64,000 bases of DNA from Escherichia coli (lineage in GTDB: Bacteria; Pseudomonadota; Gammaproteobacteria; Enterobacterales; Enterobacteriaceae). Where the stretch lies: NCBI RefSeq assembly GCF_051903065.1, contig NZ_CP178438.1; one strand, given 5' to 3'. Position numbers and translations under genes: made by a program. The notes under the pieces were generated by a model. The model saw nothing but the letters and a program-made list of their open reading frames with translations. It did not search any database and had not been told where the DNA came from. Of this stretch, positions 12,136-26,041 are shown piece by piece (the first letter of the stretch is position 1; each line of letters opens with the position of its first letter).

Positions 12136-12498
12136 GGGGCTGATTCTGGATTCGACGGGATTTGCGAAACCCAAGGTGCATGCCGAGGGGCGGTTGGCCT
12201 CGTAAAAAGCCGCAAAAAATAGTCGCAAACGACGAAAACTACGCTTTAGCAGCTTAATAACCTGCTTAGAGCCCTCTCTCCCTAGCCTCCGCTCTTAGGA
12301 CGGGGATCAAGAGAGGTCAAACCCAAAAGAGATCGCGTGGAAGCCCTGCCTGGGGTTGAAGCGTTAAAACTTAATCAGGCTAGTTTGTTAGTGGCGTGTC
12401 CGTCCGCAGCTGGCAAGCGAATGTAAAGACTGACTAAGCATGTAGTACCGAGGATGTAGGAATTTCGGACGCGGGTTCAACTCCCGCCAGCTCCACCA
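12136..12498 (+). ncRNA. ssrA: tmRNA (SsrA), intact 363 nt
   Basis: Starts GGGGCTGATTCTGGATTCGACGGG, contains the tag-peptide reading frame region and ends ...GGTTCAACTCCCGCCAGCTCCACCA. Confidence 0.95.
12454..12498. repeat. Prophage attachment-site repeat, ssrA-proximal copy (45 bp)
   Basis: ATGTAGGAATTTCGGACGCGGGTTCAACTCCCGCCAGCTCCACCA is repeated exactly at 45935-45979. Confidence 0.9.
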
Positions 12499-19082: not shown

Positions 19083-20255
19083 TTACGCGCTGACCTGGCT
19101 GGAGAAATTCACCAGGTACTGATCGGTGATGCGCTGACGCAGCATCAGGTTTTCAAGTGGCGGCACTGGCGTGTAGTCGTAGTCGATGGTGAGTTTTCCG
19201 GCTTTCAGCGTGTCTTTGTCGTTCACCGACTCATCCAGCCAGCAATCACCACCAATGAGATAGCCCTGACTGACCAGGCTGCGCATTTTGGCGCGGATAC
19301 CCTCGATAATGTCGCGGGCCAGCGACGGATTCAGCGGTTTATCCACCGCCCACATGTGCGCTTCTGCCATCGTGTCCGTCAGCACCTGCGCCGTGCGGGT
19401 GTAGTTTTCGAAGGCAAAGAGCGGGTCATCACTCAGGCAGCGGGAACCCCAGAAGCGAAAACCGTCTTTGCGGATAAGGGTGGTGACGTCGTTCTGGTTC
19501 AGCAGTCCCGCATCGGTTGCCGGGTCCTGCAGATCCCAGAACACATCAGCAGAAATTCCGGTGACACCGTTAACGCCCACGTTGGACAGGCTTTTGTGCC
19601 ATCCGGTCTGCTCGTCAATTTTGGCGCGCAGACCAAGCGCACGGGCGGTGGCATAAGCCGTTGCTTCGGCATTCAGCACCGTGTCCCAGCCAGTAAAGTC
19701 GGGCCAGATCAGCATTCCTTCGCGCTGGCTGAAGTTTTCACGGTAAGTGATCGCCTCCTGTACCGTCTTGCAGCCATACGCTGACAGGTAGGCAAACCCA
19801 CGCAGGCTTTGCGCCACGCTCAGCAACTCAGTAGCAACGGCTTTGTTATCGTGACCTGGCACGCCGAGAATGCGCGGTTTAACGCCGAGCTGTGTCTGGG
19901 CAGATAACAGGGCTTTCATGCCTGTTTTTTTACCTTCAGCAGTCACTGCGCCGATGATATTGGTCGTGGTTTCTTCTTCCGTTTCACCCTGCGGCACACG
20001 CACAACAACGGTCACTGGTTTTGCCTGGTCAGCGATGGCATCCAGCGAACGGGCCAGCGTGCCGGACTCACCCGCTTTACCGCTGGCAGTCAGCACATCA
20101 GTGATCAGCACGGGTTTATTAAGAGGAAACATTTTTGCATCGGCATCATCGCCCGTGCAGACCATACCCACGATGGCGGTGCTCACCGTGGTAATGGATC
20201 GGGTGCCTTCGTTGACTTCAGCAACGCGCACCCCGTGGTGGTAATCCTGAGCCAT
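19083..20255 (-). CDS. Contractile tail sheath protein FI
   Basis: 390-aa ORF, size and position of P2 FI. Confidence 0.9.
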
Positions 20256-20397: not shown

Positions 20398-20964
20398 TCA
20401 GGGCGATTCATTGCTCTCATTCGCCGGAAATTTTCTATAAATGGTAGAAACGCCCACATCAAAAATCAGTGCAATACGCTGTCTTGATTCTCCGGCCTCG
20501 AGTAAACGTCCAATCTGTGCCCACTGTTCGGTGGTCAACTTAGGACGGCGTCCACCTACTCTGCCTTTGGCACGAGCTGCAGCCAGCCCTGCTCTGGTAC
20601 GTTCAACTATCAGTTCACGTTCCATTTCAGCCAGAGCCCCCATGACGTGAAAAAAGAAACGGCCCATTGGGGTACTGGTATCAATACTGTCAGTCAGGCT
20701 TCGGAAATTCACACCACGCTGGCGCAACTCTTCTATCAGCGTAACAAGATGCCGCATACTGCGCCCCAGTCTATCCAGCTTCCAGACAACCAGCGTGTCT
20801 CCTGCCGATAGTGTCCTGAGCAGTTTTTTAAGCCCCGGTCTGTCGGACTTAGTGCCACTGATTTTATCCTCAAAAATCCGCTCACATCCCGCGCAGTTCA
20901 GTGCATTACGTTGCAAATCGGTGTTCTGGTCATTTGTTGACACGCGTACATAGCCAATAAGCAT
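20398..20964 (-). CDS. Serine DNA invertase (Hin/Gin/Cin/Pin family)
   Basis: Resolvase N-terminal catalytic motif (GYVRVSTNDQ) and C-terminal HTH; start placed at MLIGYVRVS; adjacent to the invertible tail-fibre segment. Confidence 0.9.
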   Translation of the reverse strand: MLIGYVRVSTNDQNTDLQRNALNCAGCERIFEDKISGTKSDRPGLKKLLRTLSAGDTLVVWKLDRLGRSMRHLVTLIEELRQRGVNFRSLTDSIDTSTPMGRFFFHVMGALAEMERELIVERTRAGLAAARAKGRVGGRRPKLTTEQWAQIGRLLEAGESRQRIALIFDVGVSTIYRKFPANESNESP

Positions 20965-20991
20965 GATCAATCCCCTGAATAAAAACCGGGG

Positions 20992-21468
20992 ATGATGCCA
21001 GTTAGCCATTATCTCTGCATTTTCTTAAACGTTGGTTTGGGAGAAGGTTCGGCATTACCCGTTGGTGTGCCTGTTCCGTGGCCTTCTGCAATACCGCCTA
21101 CTGGCTGGCTGAAATGTAACGGTGCGGCTTTTTCTGCCGTTGAATATCCTAAACTGGCGAGGGTTTACCCGACAAATAAATTACCTGATTTACGCGGTGA
21201 GTTTATTCGTGGCTGGGATGATGGGCGTGGAGTGGATAGTGGGCGCGCGTTATTATCAACTCAAACAGATGAATTTAAATCACATAGTCATTATTTCGAA
21301 AGAACATGGGCACAAACTGGATTTGATACAACAGGTGGATATTATCTTTTAGCCGCTGATGTTTCTGGCTCAGTAAATCAACAGAGATCCGATAGCACTA
21401 ACTCGGTGGGGGGGAGAGAATCTCGCCCTCGTAATATTGCATTTAACTATATTGTGAGAGCTGTGTAA
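20992..21468 (+). CDS. Alternative tail-fibre C-terminal variable segment (silent orientation)
   Basis: Open frame without its own start context; encodes ...LNVGLGEG... paralleling ...LAYLGLGEA... in H at the crossover site; followed by a tail-fibre assembly gene. Confidence 0.65.
   Translation: MMPVSHYLCIFLNVGLGEGSALPVGVPVPWPSAIPPTGWLKCNGAAFSAVEYPKLARVYPTNKLPDLRGEFIRGWDDGRGVDSGRALLSTQTDEFKSHSHYFERTWAQTGFDTTGGYYLLAADVSGSVNQQRSDSTNSVGGRESRPRNIAFNYIVRAV
21022..21045. repeat. Invertase crossover site (gix/cix-like), invertase-proximal
   Basis: TTCTTAAACGTTGGTTTGGGAGAA; its reverse complement matches 22555-22578 over about 17 nt. Confidence 0.7.
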
Positions 21469-22073
21469 TGGATAATGCTGTATTAAATAGCGAACATATT
21501 GCTACGAAGGCTGGAAATGTTACTGTTTATAACTTTGACGGTGAAACGCGAGAGTATATTTCCCCATCTATTGAATATATTGCCGTTGGTGTCGGTATTC
21601 CGGCATATTCATGTTTAGATGCTCCTGCCACACGTAAAGATGGTTATGCTATTTGCCGTTCTGCAGGCTTAAACTCATGGGAATATATACCAGACCATCG
21701 CAGTGAAATTGTCTATAGCACTGAAACAGGAGAATCAAAAGAAATCACAGCTCTGGGGGATTACCCTGAAAATACAACCATTATCGCCCCATTAACGCCA
21801 TACGATAAATGGGATGGTGAGAAATGGGTGACGGATACCGAGGCACAGCGTAGCGCCGCAGTAGACGCGGCAGAAGCACAGCGCCAGTCGCTGATTGATG
21901 CTGCTATGGCTTCCATTAGCCTGCTTCAACTGAAATTACAGGCCGGACGGAAGCTGACGCAAGCAGAAACAACCCGACTAAACGCCGTGCTGGATTACAT
22001 TGACGCGGTGATGGCAACGGATACCAGCAACGCGCCGGGGGTTATCTGGCCAGTTCCACCTGAGATGGTTTAA
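21468..22073 (+). CDS. Tail-fibre assembly chaperone for the alternative segment
   Basis: 201-aa ORF directly coupled to the alternative fibre segment inside the invertible region. Confidence 0.7.
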   Translation: MDNAVLNSEHIATKAGNVTVYNFDGETREYISPSIEYIAVGVGIPAYSCLDAPATRKDGYAICRSAGLNSWEYIPDHRSEIVYSTETGESKEITALGDYPENTTIIAPLTPYDKWDGEKWVTDTEAQRSAAVDAAEAQRQSLIDAAMASISLLQLKLQAGRKLTQAETTRLNAVLDYIDAVMATDTSNAPGVIWPVPPEMV

Positions 22074-22329
22074 TCTCAATCAGAATGGGTTCGCCCTTCT
22101 CGTTAACAGATATTTCCATTCCTTCAGGGATTTCAGATGCAGTAAAAAACCAGTTATCTTCTGGTAATTCAACAGCCCCGGTCACGTCATGAAGACCGGG
22201 GATTACTTCAGTCAAAGTAACAGGATTAAACAGGCGCACAATAAACTCTCCAAGAAAAAGCACTTGTTGATGGTCTTCCGTCGTACATCTGGCAGCGGAC
22301 ATAAAAACCGGTATTAGTGACCTGGTCAT
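22042..22329 (-). CDS. Possible short or degenerate tail-fibre assembly protein for the expressed orientation
   Basis: ORF downstream of H on the same strand, but overlapping the H 3' end in another frame; true start unclear. Confidence 0.3.
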   Translation of the reverse strand: MTRSLIPVFMSAARCTTEDHQQVLFLGEFIVRLFNPVTLTEVIPGLHDVTGAVELPEDNWFFTASEIPEGMEISVNEKGEPILIEIKPSQVELAR

Positions 22330-23617
22330 CCACGATCATTGAAACGTGAACGTTATTAGATGTGCTCCCGTAATCCGTTCTTATTCTTTCCGCTATGCTG
22401 ATAAAACGTGAAAGCTTAGGTAGCGCAATTGGATAAACGACTTTAGCCAGTCCATTATCATTAGAACCACCCGTTCCAAAGACTTCTATTGCACCATCTG
22501 ACCAGCGTATCCATGCACCATTGGCATTAGCTCCTCGTTGAATGACATATCTGGCTTCTCCCAAACCAAGGTATGCGAGAAGACCAGCTACATCCTTTCC
22601 ACTCAAATTGGTAAGCGTATTGTCCAGCGGTTGTTTACCTGCCAGCGCATTAAGCATTGTCGTGGCAAAGTTCGGATCATTCCCCAGTGCCGCCGCCAGT
22701 TCGTTCAGTGTATCCAGTGCCGCAGGTGCAGAACCCACCATTGCTGCAATCGCTGATTTCACAAAAGCCGTGGTGGCAATCTGTGTATTGTTGACCGACT
22801 GTGCCGCAGTAGGTGCGGTTGGCGTTCCGGTGAGTGCCGGACTCGACAGCGGCGCTTTCAGTGCCAGTGCATTGTTAATGGTGGTACTGAATTTCGGATC
22901 ATTGTTAATGGCTGCGGCTATTTCTTTCAGCGTGTCCAGCGTGGCTGGCGCACCATTAATAAGAGCCGTCAGAGCCGCCTGAACAAACGCGGTGGTCGCA
23001 ATCTGCGTGGTGTTATTCCCTGCTGCTGGCGTTGGCGCTTTGGGTGTCCCGGTAAACGTCGGACTTTCTTTGGGTGCATACTGTGAATGCGGGTCCGGTG
23101 CGGCAAGATGTTTTGCCATCTGATCATCCGCGTACACCTTCAGCTCCAGTGCCTTGTCATCCACATACTTGCGGGTTGCCAGCACTACAGCAGGGTCGAT
23201 TTTCAGGGTGATATTGTCCGTGCTGCTGGTAATCAGCACCATGCGCACGGTCTGAGTGCGCCCGCTACCTTCAGCCAGTTGCGGCTTATAGCTTTCCGGG
23301 CAGTTGCCCACGGCAATCAATGCCTCGGACTCATCAAACAGGCCCACTTCACGAATCCACCAACCGCCCTCGTTTTCAGGGATCACCTGTTCGGCAATAA
23401 TCTGGCTGCTGTTCTGCGGGTCGATATAGAGCATATTCAGCGCAGCCCGGCGTTTCTCATTTACCAGTGCAGTCTGCTTTGAGTCTGGCGTTGGCAATAC
23501 TCCGCCGCCATCGCCGACCGCCATATGGGTAATTTTTAGCGGCACACCGAGCGCGGCGGCGCTGGCAAGTTTCGCCGCGCCAATATCCGTCAGCAGGGTA
23601 TAAAATTTTGTGCTCAT
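22226..23617 (-). CDS. Tail fibre protein H (constant N-terminal part plus currently expressed variable C-terminus)
   Basis: 463-aa ORF with internal roughly 56-aa tandem repeat (NTTQIATTAFV...). Confidence 0.88.
   Translation of the reverse strand: MSTKFYTLLTDIGAAKLASAAALGVPLKITHMAVGDGGGVLPTPDSKQTALVNEKRRAALNMLYIDPQNSSQIIAEQVIPENEGGWWIREVGLFDESEALIAVGNCPESYKPQLAEGSGRTQTVRMVLITSSTDNITLKIDPAVVLATRKYVDDKALELKVYADDQMAKHLAAPDPHSQYAPKESPTFTGTPKAPTPAAGNNTTQIATTAFVQAALTALINGAPATLDTLKEIAAAINNDPKFSTTINNALALKAPLSSPALTGTPTAPTAAQSVNNTQIATTAFVKSAIAAMVGSAPAALDTLNELAAALGNDPNFATTMLNALAGKQPLDNTLTNLSGKDVAGLLAYLGLGEARYVIQRGANANGAWIRWSDGAIEVFGTGGSNDNGLAKVVYPIALPKLSRFISIAERIRTDYGSTSNNVHVSMIVDDQVTNTGFYVRCQMYDGRPSTSAFSWRVYCAPV
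22555..22578. repeat. Invertase crossover site inside tail-fibre gene H
   Basis: TTCTCCCAAACCAAGGTATGCGAG; inverted-repeat partner of 21022-21045; coincides with the LGLGE coding position of H. Confidence 0.65.
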
Positions 23618-24219
23618 GGATTCACTCTCATTGTGTCAATAACATGGACCGCCCCGCCTTCATGCGCGGTGCCGCCAGAAATAATTGTTTCGTTGATATA
23701 CGGATAGATCGTGATTTCTTCGCCAAGATAGCTGGCGGCTCCCACCCAATGCGGGCCGCTGGTCTGCAGATTGATGGACATGCCGATCATGTGGCGGCTA
23801 CATGGTTTGGCATCGCTTATCAGTCGCTCAAGTTCCAGATAGGTATCTTCAGTGATGCCCTGGTCCTGCACGCCGATATCCAGGCGAAACGTGCCCGGAG
23901 CCTCTCCGGTCTGCCACCACTCAATAATGCGGATCAGGAATCCGAACGGTTCCACCACCCGCCGCACGGCACTGGTGGTTCCTTTATGCTGATGAATATA
24001 AAAAGCATCCTTCACTACCTGGCGTTTGACGCTTTCTGTCCAGCCCTCGTCCCAGCGATCCACAGAGAACGCCCAGGCGAGATAAGGCAGGAAGCTGACC
24101 GGGCAGGTAGCCGGATTCCACAAGTCACGCAGCGGCACCTGCAGATCAGAAATCCCGCTACAGGTTTGCGCCAGTCGGCGCTCCAGTGAAGTTGAACCCG
24201 GTGGCAGCAGACTATTCAT
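23614..24219 (-). CDS. Baseplate protein I
   Basis: 201-aa ORF at the P2 I position, coupled to J and H. Confidence 0.8.
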   Translation of the reverse strand: MNSLLPPGSTSLERRLAQTCSGISDLQVPLRDLWNPATCPVSFLPYLAWAFSVDRWDEGWTESVKRQVVKDAFYIHQHKGTTSAVRRVVEPFGFLIRIIEWWQTGEAPGTFRLDIGVQDQGITEDTYLELERLISDAKPCSRHMIGMSINLQTSGPHWVGAASYLGEEITIYPYINETIISGGTAHEGGAVHVIDTMRVNP

Positions 24220-25159: not shown

Positions 25160-25466
25160 CGTTATTCCGCCGCCCGGTCAGCTCCACCACCATAGAACCG
25201 TCAAAGTTGCTGTTGATGGTGATGGAATCCAGCGTCAGCCGTGGCTCCCAGCGACTCAGCGCCACATACACTGCCGACATGACCTGCAGGCGTAATGCCG
25301 GATTTTGTGGCTGATCTATTAAAACCGACAGGAGGGAACCATATTCCCGGCGGGCAATACGGCTACCCTGCGGTGTCAGCAGAATGTCCCGCACCGACTG
25401 GCGCAGATGATCAATATCAGTAATGACTTTGCCGCTGGTATTGTTCATCCCGCTATAAAGCGTCAT
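25107..25466 (-). CDS. Baseplate protein W (gp25-like)
   Basis: 119-aa ORF at the P2 W position. Confidence 0.8.
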   Translation of the reverse strand: MTLYSGMNNTSGKVITDIDHLRQSVRDILLTPQGSRIARREYGSLLSVLIDQPQNPALRLQVMSAVYVALSRWEPRLTLDSITINSNFDGSMVVELTGRRNNGVPVSLSVSTGAENGSD

Positions 25467-26041
25467 ACCGGGCCTCCGGTTGTATCGCCGCCTTTCAGGA
25501 CGCCAGTATGCTGATGCGCATCAACCACGATCCCGTTAGAACTCATCGCTCCGCCGCCCTGGGTAACGCCACCATTGATCACCACTTCGCTGTTAATGCG
25601 CGTGCGGTCAGCCTCCAGTACAAACTCACTGGTTTTCATGGTGATGTTGTCAGCAGCCTCAATGACCATTGATTTGATGCCCCTGACATACCAGCGCCCG
25701 GTGGCGGGTTCGTATTCAAACCAGCCACCGTCAGGATGTTCTGTCACGCAGGCGTCCGCCGACGTCGACGGTGGTGCGAACTGATTCGAATAGACAGCGG
25801 GCAGCGCAAAGGCGGTTTCCAGATTGCCGCCCAGACTCAGCAGCACCACCTGCTCACCTTCCGATGGTCGCCACCATGTACGGGCATTCCCGGCACGCAG
25901 CGTCAGCCAGCTGATCCAGTTGGTTTCAAGCTCGCCCGTTTTCACCCGGCAAAGCCAGTTTTCCCTGTCCACTTCGGTGACTACCCCTGTGCGGATCAGG
26001 TTGGTGATAAGGCGCATGATTTCGGTTAATTGTGCGTTCAT
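25463..26041 (-). CDS. Baseplate spike/assembly protein V
   Basis: 192-aa ORF at the P2 V position. Confidence 0.85.
   Translation of the reverse strand: MNAQLTEIMRLITNLIRTGVVTEVDRENWLCRVKTGELETNWISWLTLRAGNARTWWRPSEGEQVVLLSLGGNLETAFALPAVYSNQFAPPSTSADACVTEHPDGGWFEYEPATGRWYVRGIKSMVIEAADNITMKTSEFVLEADRTRINSEVVINGGVTQGGGAMSSNGIVVDAHQHTGVLKGGDTTGGPV

Follow-up and report, generated by a model that had tools for sequence, protein, structure and literature searches.

A diverged tandem repeat of 74 residues in the tail-fibre gene H of a P2-like Escherichia coli prophage and its copy-number alleles

Gene H and its invertible C-terminus

The window, as we call the whole 64,000-nt stretch of DNA analysed here, carries on its minus strand an ORF (22226..23617) that encodes, in the current inversion state, a 463-aa tail-fibre protein of a P2-like prophage. 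Residues 1-150 (23168..23617, minus strand) make up the N-terminal baseplate-attachment domain and match Pfam PF12571 (Phage_tail_fib) over the entire profile (positions 1-150 of 150; E 2.8e-64, 216.1 bits against a cut-off of 23). The product is 53% identical to Wphi gpH over residues 1-332, PHROG tail-fibre families match it, and the ORF order around it is V-W-J-I-H, with a sheath gene also flanking. Relatives share this layout, their Pfam-labelled neighbours being Phage_base_V, GPW_gp25, Baseplate_J, Tail_P2_I, H, sheath and tube. Taken together, the gene order, the PF12571 match and the identity to Wphi gpH justify the name of tail-fibre gene H.

Downstream, a serine DNA invertase of the Gin/Cin/Hin type is encoded at 20398..21009 on the minus strand (PF00239, E 2.9e-53; HTH_7, PF02796, E 1.7e-15). 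Adjoining the invertase gene is a crossover site (21020..21046), whose inverted-repeat partner at 22555..22581 lies within H at the boundary between its constant and variable parts. The two arms, given here without strand, are 27 nt long and 81% complementary. The site in H is hix/gix/cix-like and was compared with the boundary sequence of the Mu G segment; E. coli matches to H break off at gene nucleotide 1063/1064. The current variable C-terminal part (aa 355-463; 22226..22555, minus strand) has a weak Gp53-like_C match, PF21882 matching the C-terminal 132 aa with an E of 0.003 and being among the precomputed domains of close homologues.

Two sets of variable ends are opposed in the window, the expressed C-terminus on the minus strand and, on the plus strand, a currently unexpressed alternative exon with a Collar domain (20992..21468; PF07484, E 2.4e-14) together with the tail-fibre assembly protein of that alternative C-terminus (21468..22073; PF02413 Caudo_TAP, E 1.5e-30). 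The alternative ORF contains VGLGEGSALPVGVPVPW, which is the continuation found after GLGE in the relatives P0153 and PEC408, and judging from this sequence inversion would join the alternative exon at ...GLGE. Consistent with inversion, either C-terminus is found joined after GLGE among relatives. The repeat array that is the subject of this study belongs to the constant part of H, between the N-terminal domain and the crossover site and just 5' of the latter; the invertible segment is of the Mu/P1 type and exchanges the receptor-binding C-terminus.

Anatomy and divergence of the tandem repeat

The first-pass annotation had described two consecutive units of about 56 residues at 22700-23060. 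Both peptides that it quoted occur exactly in the H product, at residues 202-257 (22847-23014) and 276-331 (22625-22792), and the tandem pair is real; the period, however, is longer, as the 18 residues between the peptides repeat too (SPxxTGTPxAPTxA...) and the true unit is therefore 74 aa, or 222 nt. The array, residues 181-328 (22634-23077), overlaps the interval first given but exceeds its bounds, and the second quoted peptide by itself overruns the lower one, 22700, by 75 nt. Unit A, APKESPTFTGTPKAPTPAAGNNTTQIATTAFVQAALTALINGAPATLDTLKEIAAAINNDPKFSTTINNALALK, comprises aa 181-254 (22856..23077, minus strand) and unit B, APLSSPALTGTPTAPTAAQSVNNTQIATTAFVKSAIAAMVGSAPAALDTLNELAAALGNDPNFATTMLNALAGK, aa 255-328 (22634..22855, minus strand); they stand head to tail with no spacer, both delimited by full matches to positions 1-74 of a unit HMM (E 5e-45 and 4e-44, respectively) and, for unit A, by the in-register alignment. 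The N-terminal half of the unit reads SPxxTGxPxAPTx5NxTQIATTAFV and the C-terminal half APxxLDTLxE(L/I)AAA(L/I)xNDPxFxTTxxNAL.

The similarity of A and B is far beyond chance. The alignment is ungapped, with 48 of 77 residues identical in register (62%; blastp E 4e-30 with composition-based statistics), or 46 of the 74 residues of the unit. At the DNA level the in-register identity of A and B is 60.6%, against 26.6 +/- 3.0% at all other in-frame offsets within H (z = 11.3). Following the array, a linker (aa 329-354; 22556..22633, minus strand), QPLDNTLTNLSGKDVAGLLAYLGLGE, runs to the crossover site. The linker is conserved behind the final (B-type) unit of the H-type relatives AH50 and RE2010, and likewise in P0151-P0154; in P0157 and in the P1/P2/lambda fibres a QPKD/QPLDATLTAL variant replaces it.

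The repeat is much weaker as DNA than as protein. Tandem Repeats Finder run on 22000-23800 returned no repeat and megablast of unit A against unit B no match; blastn with a word size of 7 aligned a 32-nt stretch at 81% identity (E 1e-5) and a 91-nt stretch at 67%. A separate repeat search recovered only one direct pair, 32 nt long with a spacing of 222, which is the best-conserved DNA core of the units: 22983..23014 in unit A, encoding N-TTQIATTAFV, and its partner 22761..22792 in unit B, both on the minus strand and 81% identical. Third codon positions of A and B agree at 31%, no exact run exceeds 11 nt and the same codon is used at only 19 of the 46 identical residues; synonymous positions are saturated. 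This pattern indicates that both copies are maintained by purifying selection on the protein, with synonymous sites randomised.

Units of both types, in the same order, also occur in the S protein of the P1-like phage RCS47, where A is identical to its window counterpart at 60 of 74 residues and B at 62 of 74. The 31% at third positions, the 11-nt longest run and the conservation of A and B types in RCS47 S show that the duplication is old rather than recent, and that the unit types predate the split between the window H and P1-like S. The earlier term "internal tandem duplication" is therefore correct as anatomy, for 74-aa units head to tail, and misleading if it implies a recent event in H, given the types shared with RCS47 S and the saturated synonymous positions. 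With the negative Tandem Repeats Finder and megablast results and exact runs of at most 11 nt, a stringent DNA dot-plot of H would look empty and a permissive one would give a faint diagonal at offset 222. The absence of a DNA-level repeat on a dot-plot had been proposed as grounds to refute the copy-number idea; applied in this way, the test would wrongly reject an idea that is correct.

Copy-number alleles and their junctions

Comparison of copy number among related prophages, which the first-pass annotation had proposed, revealed the variation directly. Among H proteins that share the N-terminal domain, the number of tandem units from residue 181 onward is 1, 2, 3 or 4, and several of the compared genes are 83-93% identical across the constant part. 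One unit is present in AH50, KW21, PEC408, 2013C-4974 and the Salmonella phage RE2010, two in the window, three in P0152-P0157, P0033 and P0098, and four in P0151 and P0017; these three- and four-unit alleles come from few assemblies, with 1-14 member sequences per cluster, among them GCA_050245305.1, GCA_014051965.1, GCA_045610785.1 and the Enterobacter roggenkampii record from which P0151 derives. In the close Enterobacteriaceae relatives examined the orders are A-B, A-(B/A)-B and A-A-A-B, and a B-type unit closes the array ahead of the QP(L/K)D linker; more distant arrays, such as that of P0017, combine features of A and B.

The units at the junctions are in-register chimeras, B5'/A3' in gains and A5'/B3' in losses, mostly with a single switch. 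In the P0152 gain the middle unit equals the allele's own unit 3 up to nucleotide 144 and its own unit 1 from nucleotide 153, with 87 of 88 informative sites fitting one switch and ACACTGAA as the stretch in common; in P0154 all 89 of 89 informative sites fit one switch, and AGTCCG is shared. The P0153 switch, at nucleotides 87-90, fits 70 of 85 sites, and its exchange point is the 32-nt DNA core. Among the losses, the single unit of the AH50 lineage is almost entirely A-type, being so up to nucleotide 204 and B-type from nucleotide 210, with AATGC shared. The RE2010 unit is roughly A-type in its 5' part, which resembles an AH50-type A unit, and B-type in its 3' part; a single switch fits it poorly (55 of 88 sites), and the switch, less well defined, is at or near the same core. 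Overall, identity at the exchange points is limited to 5-8 bases, all junctions are in exact register, and the net change is +/-222 nt; the mapped junctions fall at unit nucleotides 12-19, 87-90, 144-153 and 204-210. Such exchange is unequal and of short homology, unlike the homologous recombination usual for DNA repeats that resemble each other. Chimeric alleles also persist, the P0153 cluster having 14 members and the P0157 cluster 12, and the AH50 type occurring in at least 4 complete genomes. The suggestion that the repeats expand or contract by recombination is supported by this series of 1-4 units and by its chimeric in-register junctions. The one-unit alleles are probably losses from a two-unit gene, but may instead continue an ancestral one-unit gene.

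Of the complete E. coli genomes, 5,426 in number, 914 contain at least 80% of the array region. When 60 of these matches were sampled at even spacing, 41 alleles had two units and 4 a single one, which makes two units the form in 41 of the 45 informative rows; when the P0152 array of three units served as query against complete E. coli genomes in RefSeq, every one of the best 60 matches was a two-unit genome aligned in two pieces, suggesting that three-unit alleles are rare. Being drawn from lists ranked by score or from small, evenly spaced samples, these copy-number counts are not a census. As far as these sequences indicate, the two-unit allele is overwhelmingly dominant; since it dominates so strongly, copy-number changes are rare and the locus is not hypervariable.

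Our reading of the whole, which we regard as very probable, is that H contains an old two-copy array of 74-aa shaft units, selected at the protein level, whose copy number shifts by unequal exchange at short homologies. In-register exchange, with the units involved lying on sister genomes or on co-resident ones, would occasionally change the number of copies; taking place at microhomologies of 5-8 nt within the most conserved codons, it gives alleles with 1, 3 or 4 units. The route may be replication slippage, template switching or annealing by a phage recombinase, and would not be recombination of the RecA type. Rad52-like phage recombinases act on short diverged sequences, stf included (PMC3945230).

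Different explanations can be weighed against this one. If the duplication were recent and its copies a hot spot of RecA-dependent homologous recombination, frequent length switching as in contingency loci would be expected, and tandem in-frame repeats of 222 nt are indeed a classic substrate, with alleles of 1 to 4 units in existence. The DNA divergence largely refutes this view, in that identity is 60.6% with an 11-nt longest run and saturated third positions, Tandem Repeats Finder and megablast find nothing, and exchange points share only 5-8 nt; moreover, two units are close to fixation (41 of 45 informative rows in an even sample) and three-unit alleles are absent from the best 60 matches, so that we hold a hot spot to be highly improbable. 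Horizontal mosaicism would instead explain the copy-number differences by swaps of whole fibre cassettes between different phages, with no need for units to misalign inside the array. The mosaic nature of fibre genes is established (Sandmeier 1994, pmid 8065255, as cited in PMC8986868), P1-like S has the A-B block too, 82% identical, and the RE2010 unit, with its AH50-like 5' part, poorly fits a single A/B switch. However, the middle units of P0152 and P0154 match their own flanking units at 87 of 88 and 89 of 89 sites, pointing to an event within those alleles, and every junction keeps the exact register, the length differing by +/-222 nt overall; cassette swapping therefore seems rather unlikely to us.

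It could also be argued that A and B are different, non-interchangeable domains, one an internal spacer and the other a terminal adaptor to the linker, and that the array is not a simple repeat. Each type is conserved across P1-like S and H, B-type units come last before the QP(L/K)D linker in the close Enterobacteriaceae relatives examined, and in single-copy fibres such as lambda Stf and Wphi H the unit is of B type. Against such a division of labour, chimeras of both the B5'/A3' and the A5'/B3' kind, with three different switch points, are maintained in several genomes, the AH50-lineage single unit is almost wholly A-type, and distant arrays such as P0017 blend features of both; we consider it unlikely, though a little less so than cassette swapping. 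In addition, A, T, P, N and L are abundant in the units, for which there is no Pfam match, and this would suit a resemblance arising as a by-product of Ala/Thr/Pro-rich low-complexity composition. Such a chance origin is refuted by the blastp E of 4e-30 under composition-based statistics, by the ungapped alignment over 77 residues in exact register and by a unit profile whose matches at E<=1e-10, 17,037 representatives, mostly span all 74 positions, and we give it practically no credence.

The 74-residue unit as a fibre module and its known counterparts

A profile built from the units of lambda Stf, Wphi H, RCS47 S and the H relatives matches 48,652 cluster representatives at E<=1e-3, 17,037 of them at E<=1e-10, and up to 11 full units per protein are found among its 150 best-scoring matches; the two-unit block is matched by 33 PHROG families. 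Full-length matches of the unit HMM lie at aa 252-325 of Wphi H, aa 303-376 of lambda Stf and aa 253-326 and 327-400 of RCS47 S, with 56-62 of 74 residues identical to window unit B. Lambda Stf, Wphi H and phage 520873 have a single unit, of B type in the first two, and RCS47 S has two; in Mu S, the profile comparison found no copy. In some relatives, P0158-P0164, an additional diverged unit is located within the variable part of the fibre. By these matches, the unit is a widely shared module of fibre proteins in phages. Contrary to expectation, no Pfam 'phage tail fibre repeat' model covered it in a scan of each unit at E<=10, which gave only spurious sub-threshold matches (Acyl-CoA_ox_N, HTH_3, DprA_N); the NCBIfam scan of H found no model over the unit, and the precomputed Pfam domains of H homologues include none over the array. 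Because no Pfam or NCBIfam model covers this very abundant module, despite some 48,000 representatives, fibre shafts are left unannotated.

Structure prediction of the two-unit block by AlphaFold2 (20-row alignment; pLDDT 44.5) and of a pseudo-trimer, three copies joined by (GGGGS)5 linkers (pLDDT 30.7), gave low-confidence models with only a helical tendency in the C-terminal half of the unit. That half matches aa 199-240 of gp4, the tail collar fibre of mycobacteriophage Bxb1 (PDB 9D93; E 5e-13), and aa 267-297 of 80alpha FibU, whose density in the PDB 6V8I chain ends at residue 123, leaving the matching region unresolved (PMC7048315). The N-terminal half matches gp24 of cyanophage A4 (aa 153-223, in two stretches), the tail fibre of phiTE (aa 131-167) and a protein of phage DEV (aa 663-700); the published accounts of the A4 and phiTE structures contain no description of the half-unit motif. 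In these five proteins only half-units match, and they are otherwise unrelated to H.

That the number of units changes fibre length, as first proposed, is plausible. Each unit would add a fixed increment to a predicted homotrimeric shaft and could thereby set the distance from the receptor-binding tip to the baseplate. The array might be an adjustable spacer and the rare 1-, 3- and 4-unit alleles selected variants that retune the reach of the tip through O-antigen or capsule of differing thickness, a reading we find doubtful; if it is true, unit number would be a second, slower host-range dial beside the fast invertase switch. Pseudomonas tailocins, for which discrete haplotypes of tail-fibre length are reported (bioRxiv 10.1101/2023.04.17.536465), may offer a parallel.

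The feature is real but ordinary and of little importance outside annotation; the window allele is the majority form of a prophage gene that roughly one-sixth of complete E. coli genomes contain. Nevertheless, a tandem repeat at the protein level can vary in copy number even though its DNA copies have diverged beyond the reach of a dot-plot or of RecA, and as the copy number of H varies despite such divergence, an absent DNA repeat is an invalid test for claims of this sort. The natural series of 1-4 units, with its mapped junctions, marks points of lengthening and shortening and could guide the engineering of P2-like phage or tailocin fibres.

A conserved shaft segment common to P2/Wphi gpH, P1 S and lambda Stf was reportedly recognised already by Haggard-Ljungquist et al. 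in 1992 (pmid 1531648), Sandmeier et al. in 1992 (pmid 1534556) and Sandmeier in 1994, works cited in PMC3945230 and PMC8986868. Lambda Stf, Wphi H and P1-like S have the same 74-aa unit in the same place, upstream of the C-terminus that determines host range; the window H has two copies, like P1-like S, whereas Wphi H and lambda Stf have one. The surroundings also differ, in that the window array follows the PF12571 domain directly at residue 181, while in Wphi H, 520873 H and lambda Stf 250-300 residues precede the unit, including a 'QLSSATNS..ETLAAT' segment.

In T-even phages, the gp37/gp38 adhesins undergo domain duplication and swapping at short conserved motifs, and duplications in the T4 adhesin, selected experimentally, widened the host range (Tetart 1996, pmid 8637004; Tetart 1998, pmid 9737921; both as cited in PMC3157838). 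Protein, sequence and position are unrelated, at the tip there and in the shaft in the window H, and the window series consists of natural alleles only; the likeness is the in-frame gain and exchange of modules at short conserved motifs inside diverged DNA. With the invertible tail-fibre segments Mu G, P1 C, e14 P and p15B Min, which belong to serine invertases of the Din family, the window has in common the invertase gene, the inverted sites of about 26 bp and the opposed sets of C-terminus and assembly genes. The array, in contrast, is excluded from this type of switch, lying in the constant part 5' of the site, and Mu S is without the unit.

Anatomy and genetic setting of the repeat in H

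The tail-fibre protein H (463 residues; gene at 22226-23617, minus strand) carries two head-to-tail copies of a 74-residue unit, here named unit A (residues 181-254; 22856-23077, minus strand) and unit B (residues 255-328; 22634-22855, minus strand). The first-pass annotation had described a tandem duplication of units of about 56 residues at 22700-23060. Both peptides that it quoted were found exactly, at residues 202-257 and 276-331, and the repeat is real, but the unit is longer, as the intervening 18 residues are also repeated, and the array spans 22634-23077. Units A and B align without gaps in the protein, with 48 of 77 residues identical (blastp, E = 4e-30). In DNA they are 60.6% identical in register, 11 SD above the 26.6 ± 3.0% of other in-frame offsets within the gene. 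More specifically, identity is 69%, 82% and 31% at first, second and third codon positions, the same codon is used at only 19 of the 46 residues conserved between the units, and the longest identical run is 11 nt. Tandem Repeats Finder reported no repeat in the array region, and megablast of unit A against unit B gave no match; find_repeats and blastn (word size 7) detected a 32-nt core at spacing 222, 81% identical, which encodes TQIATTAFV. The repeat is real in protein and only faint in DNA. A DNA dot-plot, which had been proposed as the refuting test, would have misled, since the copies are too diverged in DNA.

The surrounding DNA is E. coli chromosome, with the initial 19 kb 98.7% identical to recN-ffh-yfjD and the following genes and the final 24 kb matching ypjA and gabDP. 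The tmRNA gene (12136-12498, plus strand; tag ANDENYALAA) directly adjoins the end of the P2-like prophage, suggesting that ssrA is probably its integration site. Late genes follow the order V (25463-26041, minus strand), W, J, I (23614-24219, minus strand, 5' of H), H, then the invertase gene and the sheath gene (19083-20255, minus strand). The tail-collar fibre N-terminal domain PF12571 covers H residues 1-150 (E = 2.8e-64), and residues 1-332 are 53% identical to gpH of phage Wphi. In the region 40000-64000, which matches many sites per genome (IS-like repeats), relatives are annotated with an "anti-phage dCTP deaminase" alongside ypjA and gabD/gabP.

Next to the array lies a complete invertible tail-fibre switch of the Mu/P1 type (20398-22581). 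Its crossover sites, the arms of a 27-nt inverted repeat (21020-21046 and 22555-22581), flank a 1.5-kb segment, and a serine invertase gene (20398-21009, minus strand) adjoins this segment. An alternative, unexpressed H C-terminus, a Collar-domain exon (20992-21468, plus strand), stands opposite to the present one and is accompanied by its partner, a Caudo_TAP assembly gene (21468-22073, plus strand). Most E. coli matches to H end at gene nt 1063/1064, exactly the crossover site, which encodes ...LGLGE where the Mu G-segment boundary has ...LGLQE. This homology break and the position of the inverted repeat place the array in the constant part of H, where it ends 26 residues upstream of the crossover site, and it is therefore no component of the switch. 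A 95-aa ORF (22042-22329, minus strand), convergent with the Tfa gene, shares about 100 nt with the 3' end of H. It has a match to phrog_5400 (E = 3.5e-22), a family of unknown function, and none in Pfam; in one relative, a shorter hypothetical protein of 65 aa is annotated at this position. The ORF may encode the chaperone of the Gp53-like C-terminal variant.

Distribution and types of the unit

A profile of the unit gave one full-length match each in lambda Stf (aa 303-376), Wphi H (aa 252-325) and H of phage 520873, and two in the S protein of the P1-like phage RCS47 (aa 253-400), while Mu S gave none. Of 1.84 billion cluster representatives searched with the profile, 48,652 matched at E<=1e-3, 17,037 of them at E<=1e-10. 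Within the 150 top-scoring proteins, as many as 11 full units occur per protein, and the N-terminal half-unit alone (positions 1 to ~40) repeats up to ~20 times in other large fibre proteins. The two-unit block matches 33 PHROG families, most of those listed being tail-fibre families; in Pfam and NCBIfam scans, no model covers the unit. Among solved chains, the C-half is present in the Bxb1 tail-collar fibre gp4 (9D93, E = 5e-13) and in 80alpha FibU, where the matching region is unresolved in the structure (PMC7048315), and the N-half in cyanophage A4 gp24, the phiTE fibre and a phage DEV protein. The A4 and phiTE structure papers leave the fold of the motif undescribed.

Two types can be told apart, A (...PKAPTPAAGNNTTQ...INGAPATLDTLKEIAAAINNDPKFSTTINNALALK) and B (...PTAPTAAQ..NNTQ...GSAPAALDTLNELAAALGNDPNFATTM.NALAGK). 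Units A and B of H are identical to their counterparts in the P1-like S protein at 60/74 and 62/74 residues, respectively, compared to 46/74 between A and B, and lambda Stf and Wphi H each carry a single B-type unit. These matches across phages, together with saturated synonymous sites, place the duplication before the separation of these fibre genes; it is no recent event in H, contrary to what the first-pass annotation had implied. Some E. coli relatives of H (P0158-P0164) carry at aa 357-430, after the GLGE crossover point, a third, strongly diverged unit (~40/74 identical). This places it within the variable segment that inverts, and the module thus also occurs outside the constant part.

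Copy number and junctions among relatives

The proposal that the repeat can expand or contract by recombination was supported by comparing copy number, as relatives of H hold one to four units with in-register chimeric junctions. The array starts at residue 181 in every H protein sharing the N-terminal domain. One unit is present in E. coli AH50, KW21, PEC408 and 2013C-4974 and in Salmonella phage RE2010; two in the window and most relatives; three in the homologues P0152-P0157 (E. coli; constant part 85-93% identical), P0033 and P0098; and four in P0151 (Enterobacter roggenkampii, A-A-A-B) and P0017. The array region was matched in 1,318 of 5,426 complete E. coli genomes, 914 of them containing 80% or more of the region. 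Sixty matches sampled at even intervals comprised 41 two-unit and 4 one-unit alleles, the latter shorter by exactly 222 nt, the rest being partial matches to other fibres. The best 60 matches to the three-unit array of P0152 were all two-unit genomes, with no three-unit allele, and the three- and four-unit clusters comprise 1-14 sequences each. Considering the two-unit dominance and these small clusters, copy-number change is real but rare, and two units are the stable majority state. In E. coli 2013C-4974, the annotation breaks the single-unit H (NZ_CP027587.1, 745699-746982) into two pseudogene fragments ("incomplete; partial in the middle of a contig"). Translation across its repeat region (gene nt 481-870) revealed no stop codon, and the call may be an annotation artefact from unusual gene length.

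Junctions were mapped by informative-site analysis of DNA. Three-unit alleles, the gains, have in the middle a B5'/A3' chimera that switches type once. In P0152, 87 of 88 sites fit one switch at unit nt 144-153 (common stretch ACACTGAA), and in P0154 all sites (89/89) fit a switch between nt 12 and 19 (common AGTCCG); in both, the chimera derives from the two units that flank it in that allele. For P0153 and P0157 the switch falls at nt 87-90, within the TQIATTAFV core (70/85 sites). One-unit loss alleles have the reciprocal A5'/B3' form. The AH50 lineage shows an identical junction in four genomes, between nt 204 and 210 (common AATGC), and is therefore one event; the diverged RE2010 unit is roughly A-type in its first third and B-type in the remainder, only 55 of 88 sites fitting. 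Reciprocal chimeras, all exactly in register, indicate that the alleles arose by unequal exchange between misaligned units, as judged from their sequences. As only 5-8 bases are identical at the exchange points, we infer short-homology exchange and no classical homologous recombination; it could have come about through slippage or template switching, or a phage recombinase could have annealed the strands. For lambda stf, a phage recombinase is described to tolerate short diverged homology (PMC3945230).

Putative role of the array and relation to known fibres

Most plausibly, the array is a stretch of homotrimeric fibre shaft, each unit adding a fixed length. Several facts favour this reading: the array sits between the attachment domain and the receptor-binding part, unrelated phages have the unit in their fibres, copy number varies widely in other fibre proteins, and purifying selection is strong on a Pro/Thr-rich segment and the predicted-helical segment after it. 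AlphaFold2 models were of low confidence (pLDDT 44.5 for the two-unit block and 30.7 for a linked pseudo-trimer).

In conclusion, given the corrections to unit length and coordinates, recency and refuting test, the first-pass reading is essentially right. Only two items are mildly new: the mapped natural junctions of an allelic series of one to four units, and a very abundant fibre module without a curated family model. According to later papers that cite the original work (PMC3945230, PMC8986868), this region was recognised as homologous in P2 H, P1 S and lambda Stf in the early 1990s, when motif rearrangement in fibre genes was reported as well (Haggard-Ljungquist 1992; Sandmeier 1992, 1994). 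In T-even adhesins, as cited in PMC3157838, recombination at short conserved motifs is known to duplicate and swap domains (Tetart 1996, 1998). Considering these precedents, the H repeat is an ordinary feature of a kind already understood.
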